A DNA stretch of 64,000 bases from an uncultured SAR86 cluster bacterium. Its GTDB lineage: Bacteria > Pseudomonadota > Gammaproteobacteria > Magnimaribacterales > D2472. The position numbers and the translations under genes were made by a program. The stretch is taken from contig CACJML010000001.1 of NCBI GenBank assembly GCA_902594515.1, forward strand, positions 146,977-210,976, written 5' to 3'. The notes beneath the pieces are model-generated. The model searched no databases. It saw nothing but the letters and a program-made list of their open reading frames with translations, and was not told the DNA's origin. Numbering within the stretch: position 1 is the stretch's first letter; each line of letters opens with the position of its first letter. Positions 5,368-54,969 of the stretch are shown piece after piece.

Positions 5368-6282
5368 CTATGTATTTTCGAATGGCGGCTTTGAATAGGA
5401 TATTGGTGCAGTAGCAATATCCTCAAAGGTAACTATTTCCCAGGCATCCTCAGAATCAAGAATTTTCCTTAACAGCTCATTATTTAAAGAATGTCCTGAT
5501 TTATATCCAGTAAATTGTCCAATTAGGTTATGCCCTAACAAGTATAGGTCACCAATAGCATCCAACATTTTGTGTTTTACAAACTCATCATCAAAACGAA
5601 GCCCTTCTTCATTTACAATCCCGTCTTCTCCAATTGCAATCGCATTAGCCACGCTTGCTCCCAGAGCTAAATCTTGAGATTGTAGGTAATCCAAATCTTT
5701 TGTTGATCCAAAAGTTCTTGCTCTACAAACCTCTTTAACGAAGGATGTTGAGGAAAAGTCTATTGAGGATCTTGATGCATACTTATTAATGGTTGGGTCA
5801 TCAAATTCAATTGTAAAACTCACTTTAAAGCCATCAAAAGGCTTGATTGCTGCAAAGGAATCTCCTCGTTCAACTTTCACCTCTTTTTTTACTTTAATAA
5901 ATTTTTTTATCTTTTCTTGTTGGGTGATTCCAGCTGATTGAATTAAAAACACAAAAGGGCCAGCACTTCCATCCATAATAGGAATCTCAGGACCATTAAC
6001 TTTAATGATACAGTTATCAACACCTAATCCTGCTATAGCCGATAGCAGATGTTCAATGGTAGCTATTCTTGATCCTTCTTTATAAAGGGTTGTCGAAAGT
6101 GTGGTATCACCAACGTGCTCAAAAATAGCTGGAATTTCTACATTTGGCTCAAGATCTGATCTAATGAAATTAATGCCTGAATCAACTGGAGCAGGGAGCA
6201 GTTCTAAAATAACTTTCTTGCCACTATGCAGCCCAACTCCCATCGCTTTAATTGGATTTGTTATAGTTCTTTGTTGAAGCAT
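5368..6282 (-). CDS. lpxC: UDP-3-O-acyl-GlcNAc deacetylase
   Basis: [15 protein letters not shown] and [10 protein letters not shown] zinc motifs, SGHSLN. Confidence 0.98.
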
Positions 6283-6287
6283 GAGAT

Positions 6288-7013
6288 TTATGAACAGCTT
6301 TTATGTTTTTTGATTTCAAATAATACCACCCCTGAAGCCACAGATACATTCAAACTATTTATTAATTCACTATCACTGAGATTAACAACATTATTGCAAG
6401 TATCGAGCGTTTTCTGTCGAATACCTGTTTCCTCTGATCCCACGATAAGTGCTAAGGGAGTATTGAAATCCATCGTAGTATAGATTTTTTCACTGTGCTC
6501 ACTCGTTCCAATGATTTCTATACCTTGATCTTTTAAGAACTTAATTATATTTATCAAATTTGAAACCATAAAAATTTTTCCAATCTCAGTCCCACCACAT
6601 GAAACTTTTCTGACGGTTGAAGTAATAGGAGAGCATTGATGTTTATTAATAATAATTGCATCGACATTAGCTGCAATTGCTGAGCGGATACATGCTCCAA
6701 GATTTCTTGGATCAATAATATTATCGATTATGAATAGTGTAGGATTCTCAGGAGCTGATGATTCAATAAATTCCTTTAAATCCTTATTCCCTAATTTAGG
6801 TTGAGTAGTTATTTTTGCTATTGGATATTGTTTAATTTTTTTATTTATCTCAACATCGATACTTAATCCTTTTGCAACAGATACAAGACTGGATAACCTT
6901 TCATCATTTCGGCTATCAGGGATATAAATCTTTTTGATGATTTCAGGCGAATGCTTTAAAAGCGCATCCACAACATGAAAACCTTCACGTTTTTCTTCTT
7001 CTTTTAAGTTCAT
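6288..7013 (-). CDS. rlmB: 23S rRNA (Gm2251) 2'-O-methyltransferase, TrmH/SpoU family
   Basis: [38 protein letters not shown] motifs; downstream of rnr as in other gammaproteobacteria. Confidence 0.9.
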
Positions 7014-8424
7014 TTTTCAGGAGCGTCATTTTACCCTCAAATGGAGAAACTGCTACTATCTTTACCTTAATAGAGTCACCAAACCTATATCTTCTGCCAG
7101 ACTTTATTCCATATAAATATGTTTGATCTTTTGATAATTGATAACGATCTCTTTTTAAGTCTGCAACGTGCAGTAACCCTGAAACTAAAAATTTTTCTAG
7201 GGTAATGAATAATCCAAACTCTGTTACTCCAGAAATCACCCCCTCAAATGCCTCACCTAAATGTCTTTTTAAGTAATCAAAAATTAAAATTTGATTAACT
7301 TTTCTTGAAGCATTTTCTGCTCGATGTTCAAGTTTAGATGAAATTTCACAGATCTCTTGGTCATTTTTTTTATAACTTGAATAATCATTATCATCTTCAA
7401 TGCAACTTTTAATCATTCTGTGAGTGAGTAAATCCGGATACCTTCTTATTGGAGAGGTAAAGTGACAATATTGATCTAGCTGAAGTCCAAAATGACCTAA
7501 ATTTTCGGTTGAATATTCAGCGCGTTTCATTGTTTGGAGAATGAGGGATTGCTTTAATTGATCCTTGGCAGATATTTTTTCAGAGATACTATTGATTTGA
7601 GATGCCGGATCTCGAGGATTTTGTAACTGCACGTCAGCACCTAAGATTTTTTTCAGCGTTTCAAGTTTTAATTGGTCAGGCTCCTCATGAACTCGGAATG
7701 GAGCATATCCAAACCTATTATTCAATAAATCAGCAGCACATTCGTTTGCTAGCAGCATACATTCTTCGATCATTTGGTTGGCAAAAATATTTTTTCTGAA
7801 ACTAATTGCTTTAGAAGTACCATCATCATTAATTTTTATTAAGTGTTCTTTTGAGTGAATTCTTACTGCACCTCTTTTTTCTTTAATTGCAATTCTTTTA
7901 TGCGCTAAGCTTTTTAGATTCTTGAGTGAATCAATTACTGCGTCTGAGAGCGAGGATTTAAAACTATTATTTTCTACCTCTGTGTAAGTTAATCTTGCAT
8001 GTGAATGGATAATAGCCGAAAAAAAATTATATTTTTTTAGGCAACAATCTTTATCAAGATTAATTTTTACAACAAGCGAGGGTCGATCTTCATTTGGCTT
8101 CAGTGAACATAAATTATTAGATAGGATTTCAGGTAACATTGGAATGACAAAATTAGGAAAATAGATTGATGTTCCTCTGTTTATAGCCTCCTTATCAATG
8201 CTTGATCCAGGTTTTACATAAAGTGAGACGTCAGCTATGGCAACGTACAGATCATAACCATCATTGTGTTCAATACAGAAGACAGCATCATCAAAATCTT
8301 TTGCATCTTCACCATCAATGGTTACAAAAGCAATATTAGAAAGATTTTTCCTAATTAGATTATCCAGATTAATTTTTAATGATGCAGACTCTTGCTTTAC
8401 AATAGATGGCCACGAGGTTGGCAA
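6985..8424 (-). CDS. rnr: RNase R / RNB-family exoribonuclease, short form (RNB + S1 only); start uncertain, homology and open frame extend to ~8500
   Basis: TIDGEDAKDFDDAV catalytic motif, IEECMLLAN, HFGL...YCHFTSPIRRYPDLLTHR, S1 domain (FEGVISGVTEFGLFI); adjacent to rlmB. Confidence 0.88.
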   Translation of the reverse strand: MPTSWPSIVKQESASLKINLDNLIRKNLSNIAFVTIDGEDAKDFDDAVFCIEHNDGYDLYVAIADVSLYVKPGSSIDKEAINRGTSIYFPNFVIPMLPEILSNNLCSLKPNEDRPSLVVKINLDKDCCLKKYNFFSAIIHSHARLTYTEVENNSFKSSLSDAVIDSLKNLKSLAHKRIAIKEKRGAVRIHSKEHLIKINDDGTSKAISFRKNIFANQMIEECMLLANECAADLLNNRFGYAPFRVHEEPDQLKLETLKKILGADVQLQNPRDPASQINSISEKISAKDQLKQSLILQTMKRAEYSTENLGHFGLQLDQYCHFTSPIRRYPDLLTHRMIKSCIEDDNDYSSYKKNDQEICEISSKLEHRAENASRKVNQILIFDYLKRHLGEAFEGVISGVTEFGLFITLEKFLVSGLLHVADLKRDRYQLSKDQTYLYGIKSGRRYRFGDSIKVKIVAVSPFEGKMTLLKNELKRRRKT

Positions 8425-8540
8425 AGAGTTTTCTTGAACGACATGCTCAATAGCTTCTTCAAGAGTGATGGATGATGTATTTTTTTTTAGATTGATAAGG
8501 CATTATATTTGAATAATGTCTTAATCAAAATATAACGCTA

Positions 8541-11126
8541 GTGAAAAAATTTTTAATTGCATTTTTTTTATTTCAATTCATATTTATTAGAGCGGAGACC
8601 CTAATAGATGAAGTCATCGTAGTAGGCTCTTATCTTAAATCAACAGAATCAGACCTTTCTCCAATTAGCATCATTGATAAAGATTTAATCGATGATCTAA
8701 GCATCTCTTCAATTGCAGAAATTTCTAAATATATTACCTCTTCCTCAGGATCTCATTTTCAGGCAAATACCTTAGGAGGAGTTGACCAAGGAATGGCATC
8801 GATCACCTTGAGAGGGCTTGACCATGCTTCTACCTTAGTATTAATAAATTCAAAAAGGCATACGTTCGCTGGCACCCCCTCTAATCAGGGAGAGGGGTAT
8901 ATTGATGTAAATATTATCCCTGAGATTGCGATTAACAGAGTTGAGATTTTAAAGGAAGGTGCAACTTCTATTTATGGATCTGATGCTGTTGCTGGGGTTA
9001 TCAATTTTTCCTTGTTAAGAAAATTTGAAGGACTAAATTTAGATTTTAGCTATCAAGAAACTGATAATTATGATCAATCTGAATCCTCCTTGGGGGTTTT
9101 ATATGGATGGAGTTCTAGCAAGGTTAATTTTGTGCTTGGATTTAATCATTTGGATAGAAATCCACTATCCGCATCTGAAATTCCCGGAATTGCAGAGCTT
9201 GCGCTCAGTGGCCTAGGCAAGACTTTTAAAGTTAAGGAAGATGCATTTGTTACCTCAGGTCCATACTCTGGAAATTATTCTAAAGATGACCTTATTCCTG
9301 ACCCAAGATGTGAAACTAATGGGGGAATTCTTAGTGGAGGTAGGTGTAGATTTTTATACGGGAATCGTTTCAATGTTGTTAATGATGAAACGCATAATAA
9401 GCTTTATTCATCCATAACACATGAAAGTGAAAGATTTGATTTTAATTCAACAGTGATTTTCTCAAGTGTTGATGTTAATGATAATCCCCAGTCCCCTTCA
9501 TATCCAGCTCTTCCTTTTCTAAGTCGACCAATTGAAGCTGACCAGGCAGGCAATCCCTTTGGAGTGCAAGTCACTTGGTATGGCAGGCCACTTGGCTCAG
9601 AGTTTGCCTCTCCACACTCGCCAAAAGATATTTCTCAGTATCACCTAAGTAATGAGTTTGTATTTGAATTAGATGCATCATCAAGCTTAGAGATTTCGCT
9701 AACTAACAGCATGCATTCAAATGATCATAAAAGACCAGATATCATAGACTCTAGATTCTTAAATGCTATTAATGGACAGGGCGGTTCAAGTGGCAACGAA
9801 TTGTGGAATATTTTTGATTCACAAGAGTTGTCTATTGATTTGATTAATTATGTTAGCGGTTTTGAAAAATCAAAAAAGGAGGCCTCCCTTGATGTATTAG
9901 ATTTGGTTTTCACAAGGACGCTTGATGATAGTGAGTTTGCGTTAGGTCTCCAATATGCTGAAGAGTCCTTGGAGATAAAATATAACGAAATTGCCAGAGT
10001 TGAATTTGATAAAGATGGAAAACTTTTAAAAACAGCAGATCTATTTTTTTTAGGTGGTGGAAAAAATGTTGATTCCAGCCGATCAAAGCAAGCCATCTTT
10101 TTTGAAGCTAACCATAGCATTTCTGAATTTACAGACCTTAGATTTGCAGCTAGGTATGAAGAAGTAAAAAATGATTCCTCATTTGATCCAAAAATCTCAA
10201 TTCGTCATCGGTTATCTAATAATGTTTTACTAAGGGCATCATCAAGTACAGCATTTGCTATGCCTTCAATGGCACAAATGTATTCGAGCGAAATTAACTT
10301 AGGCAGCGTAAGGGACACTGGGAATGTGTTTGTGAGACAAGCTCAGCTAGGTAATCCAGACTTGAAGCCAGCAACCTCAGACAACCAAAATTTTGGGTTG
10401 ATTTATAAAGCTAATAATTTTGACCTGGCGGTGGATTATTGGACTATCGATTATAAAAATAGAGTGGAGATTGAGGATGCCCAAGCCATGCTCAATCAAG
10501 ATCCTAATGGGTCTTCAATTACAAGAACTGAGAGTGGCGACTTAATTGGTGTTACAACTCAATATTTTAATGAAGATCAAACTGATCTAAAGGGTATTGA
10601 TTTAAGCGTTAACTCAATCTTTAATTTTAAAAATCTTGGAGAACTTTCCCTAAACCTTGAAGCAACTCATCTTATTGAATTTATGACCCCTGAACTACAG
10701 AACCAATCACAAAGTTCCTCTATGATAAATAGGGTCGGTAAATTTAATTACGATTCACCTACTCATGCTCTACCAAGAAATAGAGTGAATCTTTTTATTA
10801 ATTGGTATGTTGATGGTTATGAGCATGTTCTTAATACAAGATACATAGATAGCTACAAAACCCGCAGATCCATAAATAATCTTGCTCAATCATTAGGTTA
10901 TGACAATACGATTGATTCATTCTTGGTATTTGACTGGTGTCTTAAATCAAGTACTCAGGGTAAGGAAAGGATTCTTGGAGGCAGCATGGAGGTAGGTTTT
11001 TGTATAGTCAATCTATTAGATGAAAAACCACCTCGTTTATATGATGCACCGGATTTCAGTTTTGATACTAGGGTACATGATCCTCGAGGAAGAATTTTCC
11101 AAATATCTTTTAACTACCGAATATAA
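8541..11126 (+). CDS. TonB-dependent outer-membrane receptor
   Basis: Signal peptide, TonB box DEVIVVGS, plug motifs LRGL...TLVLINSKR and IPEIAINRVEILKEGATSIYGSDAVAGVINF, GNPDLKP, C-terminal beta strand DPRGRIFQISFNYRI. Confidence 0.95.
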   Translation: MKKFLIAFFLFQFIFIRAETLIDEVIVVGSYLKSTESDLSPISIIDKDLIDDLSISSIAEISKYITSSSGSHFQANTLGGVDQGMASITLRGLDHASTLVLINSKRHTFAGTPSNQGEGYIDVNIIPEIAINRVEILKEGATSIYGSDAVAGVINFSLLRKFEGLNLDFSYQETDNYDQSESSLGVLYGWSSSKVNFVLGFNHLDRNPLSASEIPGIAELALSGLGKTFKVKEDAFVTSGPYSGNYSKDDLIPDPRCETNGGILSGGRCRFLYGNRFNVVNDETHNKLYSSITHESERFDFNSTVIFSSVDVNDNPQSPSYPALPFLSRPIEADQAGNPFGVQVTWYGRPLGSEFASPHSPKDISQYHLSNEFVFELDASSSLEISLTNSMHSNDHKRPDIIDSRFLNAINGQGGSSGNELWNIFDSQELSIDLINYVSGFEKSKKEASLDVLDLVFTRTLDDSEFALGLQYAEESLEIKYNEIARVEFDKDGKLLKTADLFFLGGGKNVDSSRSKQAIFFEANHSISEFTDLRFAARYEEVKNDSSFDPKISIRHRLSNNVLLRASSSTAFAMPSMAQMYSSEINLGSVRDTGNVFVRQAQLGNPDLKPATSDNQNFGLIYKANNFDLAVDYWTIDYKNRVEIEDAQAMLNQDPNGSSITRTESGDLIGVTTQYFNEDQTDLKGIDLSVNSIFNFKNLGELSLNLEATHLIEFMTPELQNQSQSSSMINRVGKFNYDSPTHALPRNRVNLFINWYVDGYEHVLNTRYIDSYKTRRSINNLAQSLGYDNTIDSFLVFDWCLKSSTQGKERILGGSMEVGFCIVNLLDEKPPRLYDAPDFSFDTRVHDPRGRIFQISFNYRI

Positions 11127-11152
11127 AAAAAAGCCCATTATTCAATGAGCTT
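11125..11152 (-). terminator. Intrinsic terminator, best formed on the minus strand, possibly bidirectional
   Basis: Minus-strand AAGCUCAUU-GAAU-AAUGGGCUU is 9 bp with one G.U, followed by a U tract. On the plus strand the same position is a C-A mismatch. Confidence 0.8.
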
Positions 11153-11209
11153 TTTAAAAAAGAACACATGTAGTAGAAAAAGTAGGGGGGAAAAGAATAT
11201 CTACTACAC
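11126..11209 (-). ncRNA. Candidate sigma54-dependent small RNA (~84 nt)
   Basis: Lies between a perfect -24/-12 promoter and a terminator; 5' stem GUGUAGUAGA/UCUACUACAU enclosing a 22-nt loop UAUUCUUUUCCCCCCUACUUUU; no ORF. Confidence 0.6.
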
Positions 11210-11218
11210 AGATATATA

Positions 11219-11235
11219 TGCAATATTAGTGCCAA
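11219..11235 (-). promoter_or_regulatory. sigma54 (RpoN) -24/-12 promoter
   Basis: Minus strand reads TTGGCAC-TAATA-TTGCA, an exact TGGCAC-N5-TTGCW with GG-N10-GC spacing; predicted +1 ~11207-11209. Confidence 0.75.
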
Positions 11236-11258
11236 TTAGTATTTTTTAAATCAGGAGA

Positions 11259-11335
<77 letters not shown>

Positions 11336-11357
11336 ACGGTTGCATATTATATATATT

Positions 11358-11915
11358 TTATTGCTCAGGAAAAGAGCAACCTATACCCCCAATTCCACAA
11401 TAACCATTTGGATTTTTTTGTAGGTACTGTTGGTGATATTCTTCAGCCAAATAATAATCATTCAATACTTTTAATTCAGTCGTTATCGGCCCAAATCCTG
11501 CTTTTGATATTTCTAGTTGATAGGTCTCTAAAGTTGCTTTAGCTAAATTGAGATCTTCTTCATTATTTGTATAGATCACGGAACGATACTGACTGCCAAT
11601 ATCATTTCCCTGTCGCATGCCTTGGGTTGGATCATGCATTTCCCAAAAGCTGATCAAAATTTCTTTTAATGAAATCTCTAAAGGATCAAATACTACCTTA
11701 ACCACTTCAGCATGGCCGGTGCTGCCAGAACAAACTTCTTCATACGATGGATTAATTGAGGTACCACCTGCATATCCTACTGAAGTAAGCCTGACACCTT
11801 GCAAATTCCAAAGCCGCCTTTCGACACCCCAAAAACATCCTGCACCCAGAATAATTTCTTTATGGCCTTCTGGGGTGGGTGAGTCTAAATCTAAATTAAA
11901 GATTGAATGAATCAT
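11358..11915 (-). CDS. msrA: Peptide methionine sulfoxide reductase A
   Basis: GAGCFWGVE active site, GHAEVV, QGNDIGSQYRS, AEEYHQQYL..NPNGYC; start ATG 11915 overlaps the birA stop (ATGA). Confidence 0.96.
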   Translation of the reverse strand: MIHSIFNLDLDSPTPEGHKEIILGAGCFWGVERRLWNLQGVRLTSVGYAGGTSINPSYEEVCSGSTGHAEVVKVVFDPLEISLKEILISFWEMHDPTQGMRQGNDIGSQYRSVIYTNNEEDLNLAKATLETYQLEISKAGFGPITTELKVLNDYYLAEEYHQQYLQKNPNGYCGIGGIGCSFPEQ

Positions 11916-12661
11916 ATTGATGCATAATCTACCGAACACTCGCCAGAATTGAAAGTTAAAATTCCATTCTCATTGCTAAGAAGCATTTCACCGTTGTGAT
12001 TGATGCCCTCAAAAATTCCTTCTACCTTGTCAGAATCATTCAAATTAAGAGTAATTTTCTTATGCATATGCACACAATGCTTTTCCCACTCTGATTGCCA
12101 GTCCTTAAAGCCTTCTTTACCTAAAGCTATTTTTTCAAAAGCACTCGCAATTTTGATAATAATTTTGCTTCGATCAACTTCATTATCAATTTCTTTTAGG
12201 CCAATCCATGAATCATTTGCTACATCAGATTCAATATTAATGCCGATGCCAACAATGAAATTGTTAATCTGATTATCTTGATCAATTTCTACTAATATTC
12301 CACCGGCTTTACGATGGTTAAGAATTAGATCATTTGGCCACTTTAAAAGCACATTGATGTCTTTTGAAACTTCTTGAATTGCTTTTTTTACAATTAATCC
12401 AGTTACTAAACTCAAAGCAGGTATTGTGTCAGAGACTGCGAATCTTAAGGACATATAAATATTGCCTATTTTTGGGCTGTTCCAAGCATTACCTCGCCTT
12501 CCTCTGCCTGCTGATTGCTTCTCAGCAACTACCAAATCAAGTATTTTTTTGCTTTGAAGCGATTTTATGAATGTATTGGTTGAGTCAACATCATTAAGAA
12601 CTACTAAATTTGTAATCTCAGAGTTAAGTTTGCCTTGCAATTCAAGTGAATTAAATTTCAT
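11912..12661 (-). CDS. birA: Biotin--protein ligase (no N-terminal HTH)
   Basis: STNT, QSAGRGRRGNAW, KWPNDL...KAGGILVE, GIGIN motifs, C-terminal SH3-like segment. Confidence 0.94.
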   Translation of the reverse strand: MKFNSLELQGKLNSEITNLVVLNDVDSTNTFIKSLQSKKILDLVVAEKQSAGRGRRGNAWNSPKIGNIYMSLRFAVSDTIPALSLVTGLIVKKAIQEVSKDINVLLKWPNDLILNHRKAGGILVEIDQDNQINNFIVGIGINIESDVANDSWIGLKEIDNEVDRSKIIIKIASAFEKIALGKEGFKDWQSEWEKHCVHMHKKITLNLNDSDKVEGIFEGINHNGEMLLSNENGILTFNSGECSVDYASI

Positions 12662-12678
12662 CAATTTAGGATTTTATG

Positions 12679-50811: not shown

Positions 50812-51163
50812 TGGTGGAGGCGGCGGGAATTGAACCCGCGTCCGTTAGTTCTTCAACCTAACTTCTACATGCTTAGCTTTTTCTTTGTGTTTCGTATCAA
50901 TGATCCGAAAAGCAGGATATTTAATACTAGCCTAAATAAAATTTTAGATTTTAATCGTTAAGGCACCGAAAAAAATCCTAGACTATGAAATTTCCCAGTA
51001 CTTCAAACCATAGTCAATTTTTGTACTGGTTAGCCAATTAAGCGGCTAATGCGTAGTTGTCGTTTTCTGCAACTAAATTTTTTGTGATACGTTTTACAAG
51101 AGTTATCACGATCTTGGCATGCGCTTTGGAATCCAATAAAAACGTCGAACCCAATTCGCCCCC
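50812..51163 (-). ncRNA. ssrA: tmRNA, one-piece, 352 nt; tag (A)AENDNYALAA encoded at 51038-51070
   Basis: 5' GGGGGCG pairs with 3' CGCCTCC-A-CCA including G3.U70; T-arm GCGGGTTCAATTCCCGC; resume context TAGTT-GCA, tag ORF ending TAA; TATAAT upstream at 51176-51181. Confidence 0.97.
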
Positions 51164-54515: not shown

Positions 54516-54561
54516 TTTTTTGTTTGTTTATACTTGAATTGAATTATTTTACTTGAGTTTG

Positions 54562-54969
54562 ATGACCAAAGAAAACAATGAACTAAAAAAGGCTGGATTA
54601 AAAGCAACCCTTCCTAGAATAAGAATTCTTGAGGTTTTAGAAGGGAGTGCTGAAAACCACTTATCCGCAGAGGATATCTATAAAAACTTAATTTCTAATG
54701 GAGAAGATGTAGGGCTTGCCACTGTATACAGAGTGCTAACACAATTTGAATCTGCTGGCATTGTAATGCGTCATAACTTTGAGAGCGGTCATTCAGTTTA
54801 TGAAATTACGCCAGATGATCATCATGATCACATGGTTTGTCTTGAAACCGGAGATGTTATTGAGTTTCATGATGAAATCATTGAGAGGCAACAAGAAAAA
54901 ATTGTTTCTGAAATGGGTTATGAAATCGTTGATCACTCAATGGTTCTTTACGTTAAACCAAAAAAATAG
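54562..54969 (+). CDS. fur: Ferric uptake regulator
   Basis: LKKAGLKATLPR, HLSAED, GLATVYRVL, HHDHMVC. Confidence 0.97.
   Translation: MTKENNELKKAGLKATLPRIRILEVLEGSAENHLSAEDIYKNLISNGEDVGLATVYRVLTQFESAGIVMRHNFESGHSVYEITPDDHHDHMVCLETGDVIEFHDEIIERQQEKIVSEMGYEIVDHSMVLYVKPKK

Follow-up and report, generated by a model that had tools for sequence, protein, structure and literature searches.

A conserved small RNA gene with a sigma-54-type promoter and a C-rich loop, convergent with a TonB-dependent receptor gene, in the SAR86 cluster

Introduction

What is encoded in the short interval between a tRNA-Thr gene and a TonB-dependent receptor gene that faces it in a SAR86 genome? The stretch analyzed here (the window) comprises 64,000 nt from an uncultured SAR86 cluster bacterium (GenBank assembly GCA_902594515.1, contig CACJML010000001.1, positions 146,977 to 210,976), and the interval in question occupies positions 11125-11235 of its minus strand. 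An original prediction, made from the letters of the sequence alone, read it as a small RNA (sRNA) gene driven by sigma-54, with a C/U-rich loop able to pair with Shine-Dalgarno sequences. To our knowledge, almost nothing is known about gene regulation in SAR86. These bacteria (Magnimaribacterales) are highly abundant in the surface ocean and have small genomes, in which TonB-dependent transporters dominate the transporter pool (PMC3358033; PMC11582366). The interest of an sRNA in this group rests on that abundance and on the small number of regulators.

That the interval is a real, conserved sRNA gene is hardly in doubt. The explanation that best accounts for the locus as a whole is a gene for a sigma-54-driven sRNA with a C-rich seed, to which a probability of roughly 60% is assigned. 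The parts of this explanation differ in strength and are treated in turn below: the RNA and its promoter, its relatives, its relation to the genes on either side, and its possible mode of action.

The RNA gene in the window

The gene spans 11125-11235 (minus strand) and has a predicted product of ~84 nt. It opens with TTGGCAC-TAATA-TTGCA (TTGGCACTAATATTGCA) at 11235-11219 (minus strand), a sigma-54-type promoter that can be read directly from the sequence. The -24 GG lies at 11233-11232 and the -12 GC at 11221-11220, giving the spacing GG-N10-GC. The consensus TGGCAC-N5-TTGCW is matched exactly at 11234-11219, with the two doublets 10 nt apart, as the sigma-54 class requires. This is the sole exact match in the 64 kb, against 0.06 expected from dinucleotide-preserving shuffles, 6 of 100 of which had one. 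When one mismatch is allowed, the window holds 4 sites versus 2.3 expected, and because this is near expectation only the exact site stands out. The original prediction had placed an exact sigma-54 promoter here, and the scan returned the same coordinates. A consensus scan of 10900-11500 found no sigma-70-like promoter, and TTGGCA is ruled out as a -35 element because any TATA-like hexamer is only 11-12 nt away.

In sigma-54 promoters, transcription starts ~12 nt downstream of the C of the -12 element. Counted in this way, 12 nt past the C of GC, the predicted +1 is ~11208 (11207-11209, minus strand). The start near 11208 proposed earlier is retained, 11208 being the second stem base.

The minus strand from 11212 to 11120 folds with a minimum free energy (MFE) of -22.8 kcal/mol (z = -6.3), a stability that none of 200 shuffles attained. 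The MFE and centroid structures agree on a hairpin (11168-11209, minus strand) whose 10-bp stem, GUGUAGUAGA/UCUACUACAU, pairs 11209-11200 with 11177-11168 and carries a 22-nt loop, UAUUCUUUUCCCCCCUACUUUU (11199-11178, minus strand). Within the loop lies a conserved C-rich motif, AUUCUUUUCCCCCCUA (11183-11198, minus strand), which is common to the short and long forms of the RNA described below. The hairpin is followed by a 12-nt U-rich linker, GUGUUCUUUUUU (11156-11167, minus strand), which is unpaired in the MFE structure and conserved in short forms. The gene ends with an intrinsic terminator (11125-11155, minus strand), found by folding and by pattern scan, with a 12-bp stem (11155-11144 with 11139-11128) and a GAAU loop. 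Its 8-U run occupies 11132-11125, and the first five bases of the run form the 3' end of the stem. In the window the pattern scan calls this terminator on the minus strand only; the hairpin can also terminate the convergent receptor gene, because an A run and a T run flank it. The 10-bp stem, the 22-nt loop and the terminator with its U tract were all recovered where the original prediction had drawn them, the terminator folding as 12 bp. A chance origin is excluded by the count of consensus sites (1 versus 0.06) taken with the z-score of the fold.

The interval had been described as free of open reading frames (ORFs). In a mechanical sense it is not, since a 41-aa ORF with a TTG start covers 11110-11235 (minus strand). 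This ORF starts inside the promoter and has no Pfam match, and length differences of the C and U runs among relatives preclude its conservation. The small-peptide reading is rejected on these grounds, and the statement holds in the sense that the interval lacks coding potential.

Relatives and the two forms of the RNA

Receptor homologues 86-92% identical to that of the window led, without use of the RNA, to three contigs (L081, L082 and L083) that keep TTGGCAT-N5-TTGCATAT together with a nearly unchanged hairpin and loop. A contig found via msrA alone (L002) carries TTGGCAC-AAGAA-TTGCA and a longer RNA that contains the CUUUCCCCCUA motif twice and ends in a terminator, facing the 3' end of a receptor gene. 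Metagenomes were scanned with the pattern TTGGCAY-N5-TTGCAT-N{10,40}-TTTCCCCC, which matched at least 120 stretches. Among the at least 125 pattern matches listed, 79 (63 unique sequences) belong to one family, all on AT-rich contigs, and the remaining matches listed are unrelated sigma-54-type sites of other organisms.

The family unit is present on at least about 100 marine SAR86-type contigs and occurs in two forms: the short one seen in the window (~84 nt) and a long one of ~120 nt. In this unit, TTGGCA(C/T)-N5-TTGC(A/T) is followed, ~12 nt past the GC, by a structured RNA that exposes a UUUCCCCCUA motif and closes with a terminator. Among the matches listed, 10 unique sequences are of the short form and 53 of the long form, and the latter fall into four sub-types differing chiefly in the 3' part. 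Judged from these sequences, most SAR86 lineages carrying the gene have the ~120-nt version. Carrier assemblies are GCA_902585895.1 for L083, GCA_902546485.1 for L227 and GCA_014381325.1 for L240.

The long form folds into a three-way junction closed by a helix of 13-14 bp, P1. P2 (UUCU/AGAA) displays the loop UUUCCCCCUAAU, P3 is formed by UGAAU/AUUCA, and after P3 come a single-stranded second copy of the motif, UUUCCCCCUAAGAAUG, and an 11-bp terminator. Single-sequence folding of long forms gives z-scores from -2.4 to -9.0. The helices are supported by compensatory base changes. In the alignment of the 53 long forms, P1 is 97% paired and shows both-side changes at 4 of its 13 pairs (AU to GC 11 times, CG to UA seven times), and the terminator shows both-side changes at 6 pairs. 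Overall, 91% of cells are paired versus 23-46% after the partner columns have been shifted by 1-3 positions, and the covariation score of 0.167 compares with 0.131 ± 0.005 in shuffles (0 of 500 reach it). In P2, the compensatory change from UUCU/AGAA to UACU/AGUA is seen in the independently fetched L230-L238.

The short form varies little, with one switching pair in the stem and one in the terminator. The hairpin stem is retained in 10 of 10 short-form relatives, with one AU-to-UA swap, and one terminator pair changes from AU to UA in 4 of 10 sequences. The terminator stem also shows compensatory changes, from GCUCAUU/AAUGGGC in the window to GCCCAUA/UAUGGGC in L081, L082 and L083. At the 5' end both forms read (U)GUGUA..AGUA, and both contain AUUCUUU(U)CCCCC(C)UA; the window hairpin corresponds by homology to the 5' strand of P1 together with the P2 loop. 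In long forms UUCUUU(U)CCCCC(C)UA occurs twice, so that the C run is exposed in the hairpin loop in the window and, in the long form, both in the P2 loop and in the single strand before the terminator.

Rfam 15 contains no family that matches the window interval at the gathering threshold or at E values up to 10, the best sub-threshold match being STnc340 with 19.9 bits against a threshold of 80. Seven long-form loci, searched at E values up to 1, likewise gave no match for the sRNA. Qrr, GlmY/GlmZ, CrcZ, sX13, RsaE and IMES are among the families without a match. The earlier statement that the RNA belongs to no recognized family therefore extends to both forms. The family is new in that it has neither an entry in Rfam 15 nor a match in the literature searched; the kind of RNA, with a sigma-54-type promoter and a C-rich seed, is already known. 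No further copies were found elsewhere in the window or in SAR86 lineages lacking the locus with a covariance model of the long form, which sees short forms weakly (E 0.03-0.3), and no family member was found on IMG/VR viral contigs.

The features that define an sRNA gene are thus all present: a promoter of its own, no conserved ORF, a stable fold, a terminator hairpin with a U tract and conservation across species. The prediction of an independent structured RNA of ~84 nt is upheld by the conserved promoter, the covariation and the terminator, and the comparison with relatives for which it had called finds both the -24/-12 motif and the stem kept.

Conservation of the promoter and its class

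For a test of the promoter that is free of search bias, contigs were picked solely by receptor protein identity, using three proteins 79-90% identical to a long-form receptor. The RNA is present in 21 of 21 such contigs and TGGCAC-N5-TTGC(A/T) likewise in 21 of 21, three of them with TTGCT. Together with the window, L002, L081 and L083 (L082 repeats L081), these make 25 contigs with 11 distinct sequences, in which the sole invariant block 5' of the RNA is TTGGCA....ATTGC, the spacer and the flanks being unconserved. In its family-wide form the block reads TGGCA(C/T)-N5-TTGC(A/T) and is found in every member. All eleven consensus positions agree with sigma-54 and are invariant among lineages.

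The distance from TTGC to the structural anchor of the RNA is exactly 12 nt in 91 of the 98 family members compared. Long forms are anchored at the first G of P1; in short forms, whose stem starts 2 nt before it, GTAGTAG serves as the anchor. Recognition by sigma-54 would be the most economical reading of an 11-position match that is invariant and correctly spaced from the 5' end of the RNA, and on this sequence evidence the promoter is probably sigma-54-dependent.

Independence from the upstream tRNA gene

The original prediction had conceded that the terminator might simply end the upstream birA-msrA-tRNA-Thr transcript, in which case the RNA would be a tRNA trailer. In the window, tRNA-Thr(UGU) lies at 11259-11335 (minus strand; ARAGORN and Rfam), outside the sRNA gene, and is preceded by msrA (11358-11939, minus strand) and birA (11912-12664, minus strand). 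The best relatives of this msrA, with 59-66% identity, are found in metagenome-assembled and single-amplified genomes of SAR86, which have the common order tuf-tRNA-birA-msrA-tRNA-Thr. Similarity and gene order point to a SAR86-type (Magnimaribacterales) gammaproteobacterium as the source of the window.

The distance from tRNA-Thr to the promoter ranges from 23 nt to >1 kb among lineages, or else divergent protein genes stand between the two or in place of the tRNA; the promoter stays beside the RNA whatever the upstream neighbour. In L083, ~110 nt are inserted between tRNA-Thr and the promoter, which shows that the promoter moves together with the hairpin and is not tied to the tRNA. Where the upstream neighbour is a divergent protein gene, as in many lineages, the RNA cannot have originated as a trailer. 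Both the tRNA-Thr trailer and the mere terminator of birA-msrA-tRNA are rejected for the family, since insertions of 110 nt to >1 kb or other genes occur upstream and the promoter remains with the RNA. The RNA gene is independent of the tRNA.

The space between tRNA-Thr and the sRNA behaves as an insertion hot spot. The cargo found 3' of tRNA-Thr differs from lineage to lineage and includes a PhyH-family gene and genes for secreted proteins. In some lineages a small hydrophobic ORF of ~35-43 codons is located between tRNA-Thr and the sRNA promoter (L002 2580-2690, MKNDSNLEKDFKIARYIYISIYIGLIVLLLVFF; also L125, L196, L206 and L202; L010 7561-7692).

The convergent TonB-dependent receptor gene

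On the other side, the sRNA gene meets the 3' end of a gene for a TonB-dependent receptor of 861 aa (8541-11126, plus strand; Pfam Plug and TonB_dep_Rec_b-barrel), which matches no specific NCBIfam family at cutoff. The receptor stop codon (11124-11126) overlaps the last bases of the sRNA U tract, the hairpin standing directly behind the receptor gene. An orthologous receptor gene is convergent with the RNA in 76 of the 76 family loci that have enough sequence, where it ends 107-178 nt from the start of the promoter, and its C-terminal identity to the receptor of the window ranges from 44% to 100%. The long-form orthologues are labelled 'SAR86 cluster bacterium' by NCBI. The convergent receptor and the long form with its two motifs were both missing from the original prediction.

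This linkage opens a cis-antisense reading, in which the RNA is a partner of the convergent receptor transcript in the manner of GadY. A receptor message that reads through the shared hairpin would contain the exact complement of the sRNA and, within it, two UAGGGGGAA sites. The duplex would direct processing or stability of the receptor mRNA, or of a transcript of the receptor and the gene downstream; alternatively, the 3' untranslated region of the receptor mRNA would titrate the sRNA. Several features of the loci fit such a role. The receptor ends behind the sRNA at every one of the 76 loci despite C-terminal identity as low as 44%, and its codons come into contact with the RNA gene, through the stop codon in the window and, in L109-type variants, through last codons that overlap the 3' hairpins of the sRNA. 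In the long form L103, a scan of 5600-6100 returned a terminator for the sRNA strand but none for the receptor strand, so that receptor transcripts may continue past this point and bear the sRNA complement. In several lineages the next gene past the sRNA is co-directional with the receptor.

However, the short-form hairpin, with A and T runs on either side, should stop transcription on both strands, and the overlap is then just the hairpin. The genes are 0-30 nt apart, and the linkage may merely reflect the lack of room for insertions. Pure antisense action needs neither a conserved, repeated loop motif nor a covarying helix, and SAR86 lineages without the sRNA retain the receptor in the opposite orientation. 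The comparison with GadY of Escherichia coli is similarly divided. GadY is also a small RNA convergent with a 3' end, that of gadX, which it abuts or overlaps, and in some lineages the SAR86 RNA likewise lies between co-directional genes. GadY, however, is sigma-S-dependent and not sigma-54-dependent, and the overlap of the short form is confined to the terminator hairpin and accompanied by a conserved loop motif that antisense would not need. As the whole explanation, a GadY-like role is unlikely; given the invariable tail-to-tail arrangement, it is a serious rival to the seed-based sRNA or an additional function of it.

The RNA is missing at this locus in L001, L003, L006, L010, L084-L093 and L214-L218, all from SAR86 lineages. 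In most of these the receptor gene is reversed and co-directional with an RNB-family gene, and genes for an amidohydrolase, ADH, a second receptor and MerC stand between tRNA-Thr and the receptor. Comparison of 6985-11126 of the window with L214-L216, L218 and L084-L093 indicates that the receptor is inverted where the sRNA is present. In the lineages without the sRNA, the receptor has the same direction as the RNB, SpoU, LpxC and SecA genes and is preceded by the MerC and second-receptor genes. Gain or loss of the sRNA coincides with inversion of the receptor and loss of ~7 kb of genes.

Proposed mode of action and targets

In the preferred reading of a sigma-54-driven sRNA, an enhancer-binding protein would switch the RNA on via sigma-54 RNA polymerase, and the -24/-12 promoter would start transcription at ~11208. 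The ~84-nt product would form a single hairpin with a loop exposing UUCUUUUCCCCCCUA, and the transcript would end at an intrinsic terminator common, back to back, to the sRNA and the convergent receptor gene. The long version would offer the UUCUUUUCCCCCCUA motif twice, in a hairpin loop of the three-way junction and in the single strand before the terminator. The C-rich seed would then base-pair with G-rich segments (for example UAGGGGGAA) within or close to ribosome-binding sites, and change the translation or stability of the target mRNAs. Such pairing is suggested by analogy with sX13, RsaE/RoxS and 6C. The motif also resembles the anti-Shine-Dalgarno tail of 16S rRNA (CCUCCUUA against CCCCCUAA). 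Action in trans through the C-rich seed is put forward tentatively, at somewhat less than even odds.

Several results weigh against a sigma-54-driven RNA with a C-rich seed. With regard to the seed, AGGGGGRA occurs in the window only as the complement of the sRNA itself and antisense to tRNA-Tyr, and G runs near start codons show no consistent pattern in 0.9-1.0 Mb of AT-rich SAR86 loci. The best duplexes between the loop and the window reach about -22 kcal/mol versus -21 to -27 for shuffled loops (RNAduplex), and the 5' regions of the receptor gene itself contain no G run. The window and the ~1 Mb of loci used for these searches represent a small part of any single genome. With regard to the promoter, most family members came from a search that demanded the promoter and the C run, and their invariance is in part by construction. 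No conserved activator site was found upstream of -24, where the sequence is unrelated between lineages, and the tRNA gene in the window ends only 23 nt before the promoter. An activator without a DNA-binding domain, or one whose sites differ from lineage to lineage, would be compatible with this result. Genes for RpoN, an enhancer-binding protein or Hfq were not found among 25 ORFs of the window by Pfam scans. In the fetched SAR86 loci, rpoN and an activator gene were likewise absent from tblastn searches with E. coli RpoN and the NtrC central domain, which matched only unrelated GC-rich organisms, and the SAR86 literature searched is silent on rpoN, an activator and hfq. Of the anti-Shine-Dalgarno claim in the original prediction, the exposure of the C run in a loop stands, whereas no G-rich partner turned up in the window or the ~1 Mb of SAR86 loci.

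A more inclusive version combines both sides of the locus: a clade-wide, sigma-54-gated RNA, in a group that is among the most abundant heterotrophs of the ocean, with an anti-Shine-Dalgarno-like UUUCCCCCUAA, a trans regulon of G-rich leaders and cis coupling to the receptor 3' end. This version is doubtful. If true, the sRNA would act both in cis and in trans and would couple outer-membrane uptake to a nutrient signal, in a streamlined genome that has very few transcription factors.

The failure to find mRNA targets in these sequences also suits a protein decoy like CrcZ or CsrB, with exposed copies of UUUCCCCCUAA titrating a regulator that binds C-rich RNA. The long form shows the 11-13-nt motif twice, once looped and once single-stranded, the conserved stretch reaches past the run of C to the U and A bases beside it, and sigma-54-driven protein decoys do exist, namely CrcZ and GlmY. 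However, one or two copies of the motif compare with 5-20 in known decoys, and just one is present in the short form. A candidate binding protein is neither known nor encoded in the vicinity, and the target search that failed took in only a small fraction of a genome. A decoy is improbable, and a weaker rival than the cis-antisense role.

Very improbable is that the TTGGCA-N6-TTGCA block is the site of another factor or another class of promoter, with the RNA arising from another start, as a tRNA-Thr trailer or as a plain terminator region: neither rpoN, sought in the window and the fetched SAR86 loci, nor a conserved upstream activator site was found and no terminator separates tRNA-Thr from the hairpin in the window, but eleven consensus positions are invariant while spacer and flanks vary, the RNA structure begins at a fixed distance of 12 nt, 10900-11500 has no sigma-70-like site, and in many lineages the upstream gene is a divergent protein gene, not a tRNA.

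Comparison with known small RNAs

The Qrr RNAs of Vibrio, which depend on sigma-54 and LuxO, resemble the SAR86 sRNA in length (~85-120 nt), in the terminator, in the promoter TGGCAC-N5-TTGCA and in the occurrence of sequence variants within one clade. They differ in that the SAR86 RNA has no match to them in sequence or structure through Rfam, that luxO adjoins qrr1 whereas no activator gene is adjacent to the SAR86 RNA, that the conserved seed of the latter is a C run, and that one copy per locus is seen.

In sRNAs of the sX13, RsaE and 6C type, the target sites are G-rich and situated in or near ribosome-binding sites. sX13 of Xanthomonas (PMC3771888), RsaE/RoxS of Firmicutes and 6C of Actinobacteria share with the SAR86 RNA runs of four to six C in hairpin loops, in repeated copies, and for 6C one report describes C-rich loops that bind mRNA targets (PMC6486639). 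Their sequences and folds are unrelated to it, with no Rfam matches. The SAR86 RNA, unlike them, has a sigma-54-type promoter and a motif that runs into flanking U and A (UUUCCCCCUAA), and no G-rich target was found for it in the window or in about 1 Mb. By analogy, the SAR86 RNA would most plausibly work as the C-rich-loop sRNAs do.

CrcZ/CrcY and GlmY link a nutritional signal to post-transcriptional control by sequestering proteins, Hfq/Crc and RapZ, respectively. CrcZ/CrcY of Pseudomonas (sigma-54 and CbrB) and GlmY of enterobacteria (sigma-54 and GlrR; PMC3045617) are similar to the SAR86 RNA in their sigma-54-type promoters and repeated exposed motifs. In contrast, CrcZ is far longer and has A-rich motifs, and the activator genes of CrcZ and GlmY are adjacent, none such being present at the SAR86 RNA.

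An abundant non-coding RNA from metatranscriptomes (Shi et al. 2009) has been placed in a SAR86 region for sugar metabolism (Dupont et al. 2012; PMC3358033, Figure 5). It belongs to a different locus from the present RNA, the distinction between the two being one of location.

Other elements in the window and in the scanned contigs

Elsewhere, the window contains two ordinary features (50812-51163, minus strand, and 54553-54969): a one-piece tmRNA (tag AENDNYALAA) beside smpB, and the gene of a Fur-family regulator located upstream of grpE-dnaK-dnaJ. Few regulators other than Fur can be seen in the window.

The scan pattern also catches classical sigma-54 units, as seen in an organism of 55% GC (L108 ~10269-10949, and L179), where a sigma-54-type motif and a C-rich leader adjoin a gene for an NtrC-like enhancer-binding protein. 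In L099 (2331-2649) and L191, a perfect TTGGCAT-N5-TTGCAT lies 27 nt before the Shine-Dalgarno sequence and ATG of a gene for a 91-aa secreted protein. L099 is an abundant AT-rich marine contig resolved to Gammaproteobacteria only; if it is SAR86, this would be the second sigma-54-type promoter of the clade.

AT-rich viral contigs of IMG/VR (L243, L245-L248, L250 and L258-L260) and the metagenome contigs L141 and L155 (their entry being a 122-kb contig) have in common an unrelated element, in which TTGGCA(C/T)-N5-TTGC precedes a pair of C5/G5 hairpins and the conserved block AAAAGGCGGCGGTGGTCTAAA. Four sigma-54-type motifs are present in L141. The element may be a phage-borne, sigma-54-driven small transcript.

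Significance for SAR86

The RNA would enlarge the short list of sigma-54-driven sRNAs and that of sRNAs with C-rich seeds, and the family merits an Rfam entry. Its abundance in metatranscriptomes already available can serve to report the signal that its activator senses, and it can be tested in the single cultured isolate or in a heterologous host. A conserved sRNA with a sigma-54-type promoter and a tie to a transporter gene provides a concrete, testable handle on gene regulation in SAR86.

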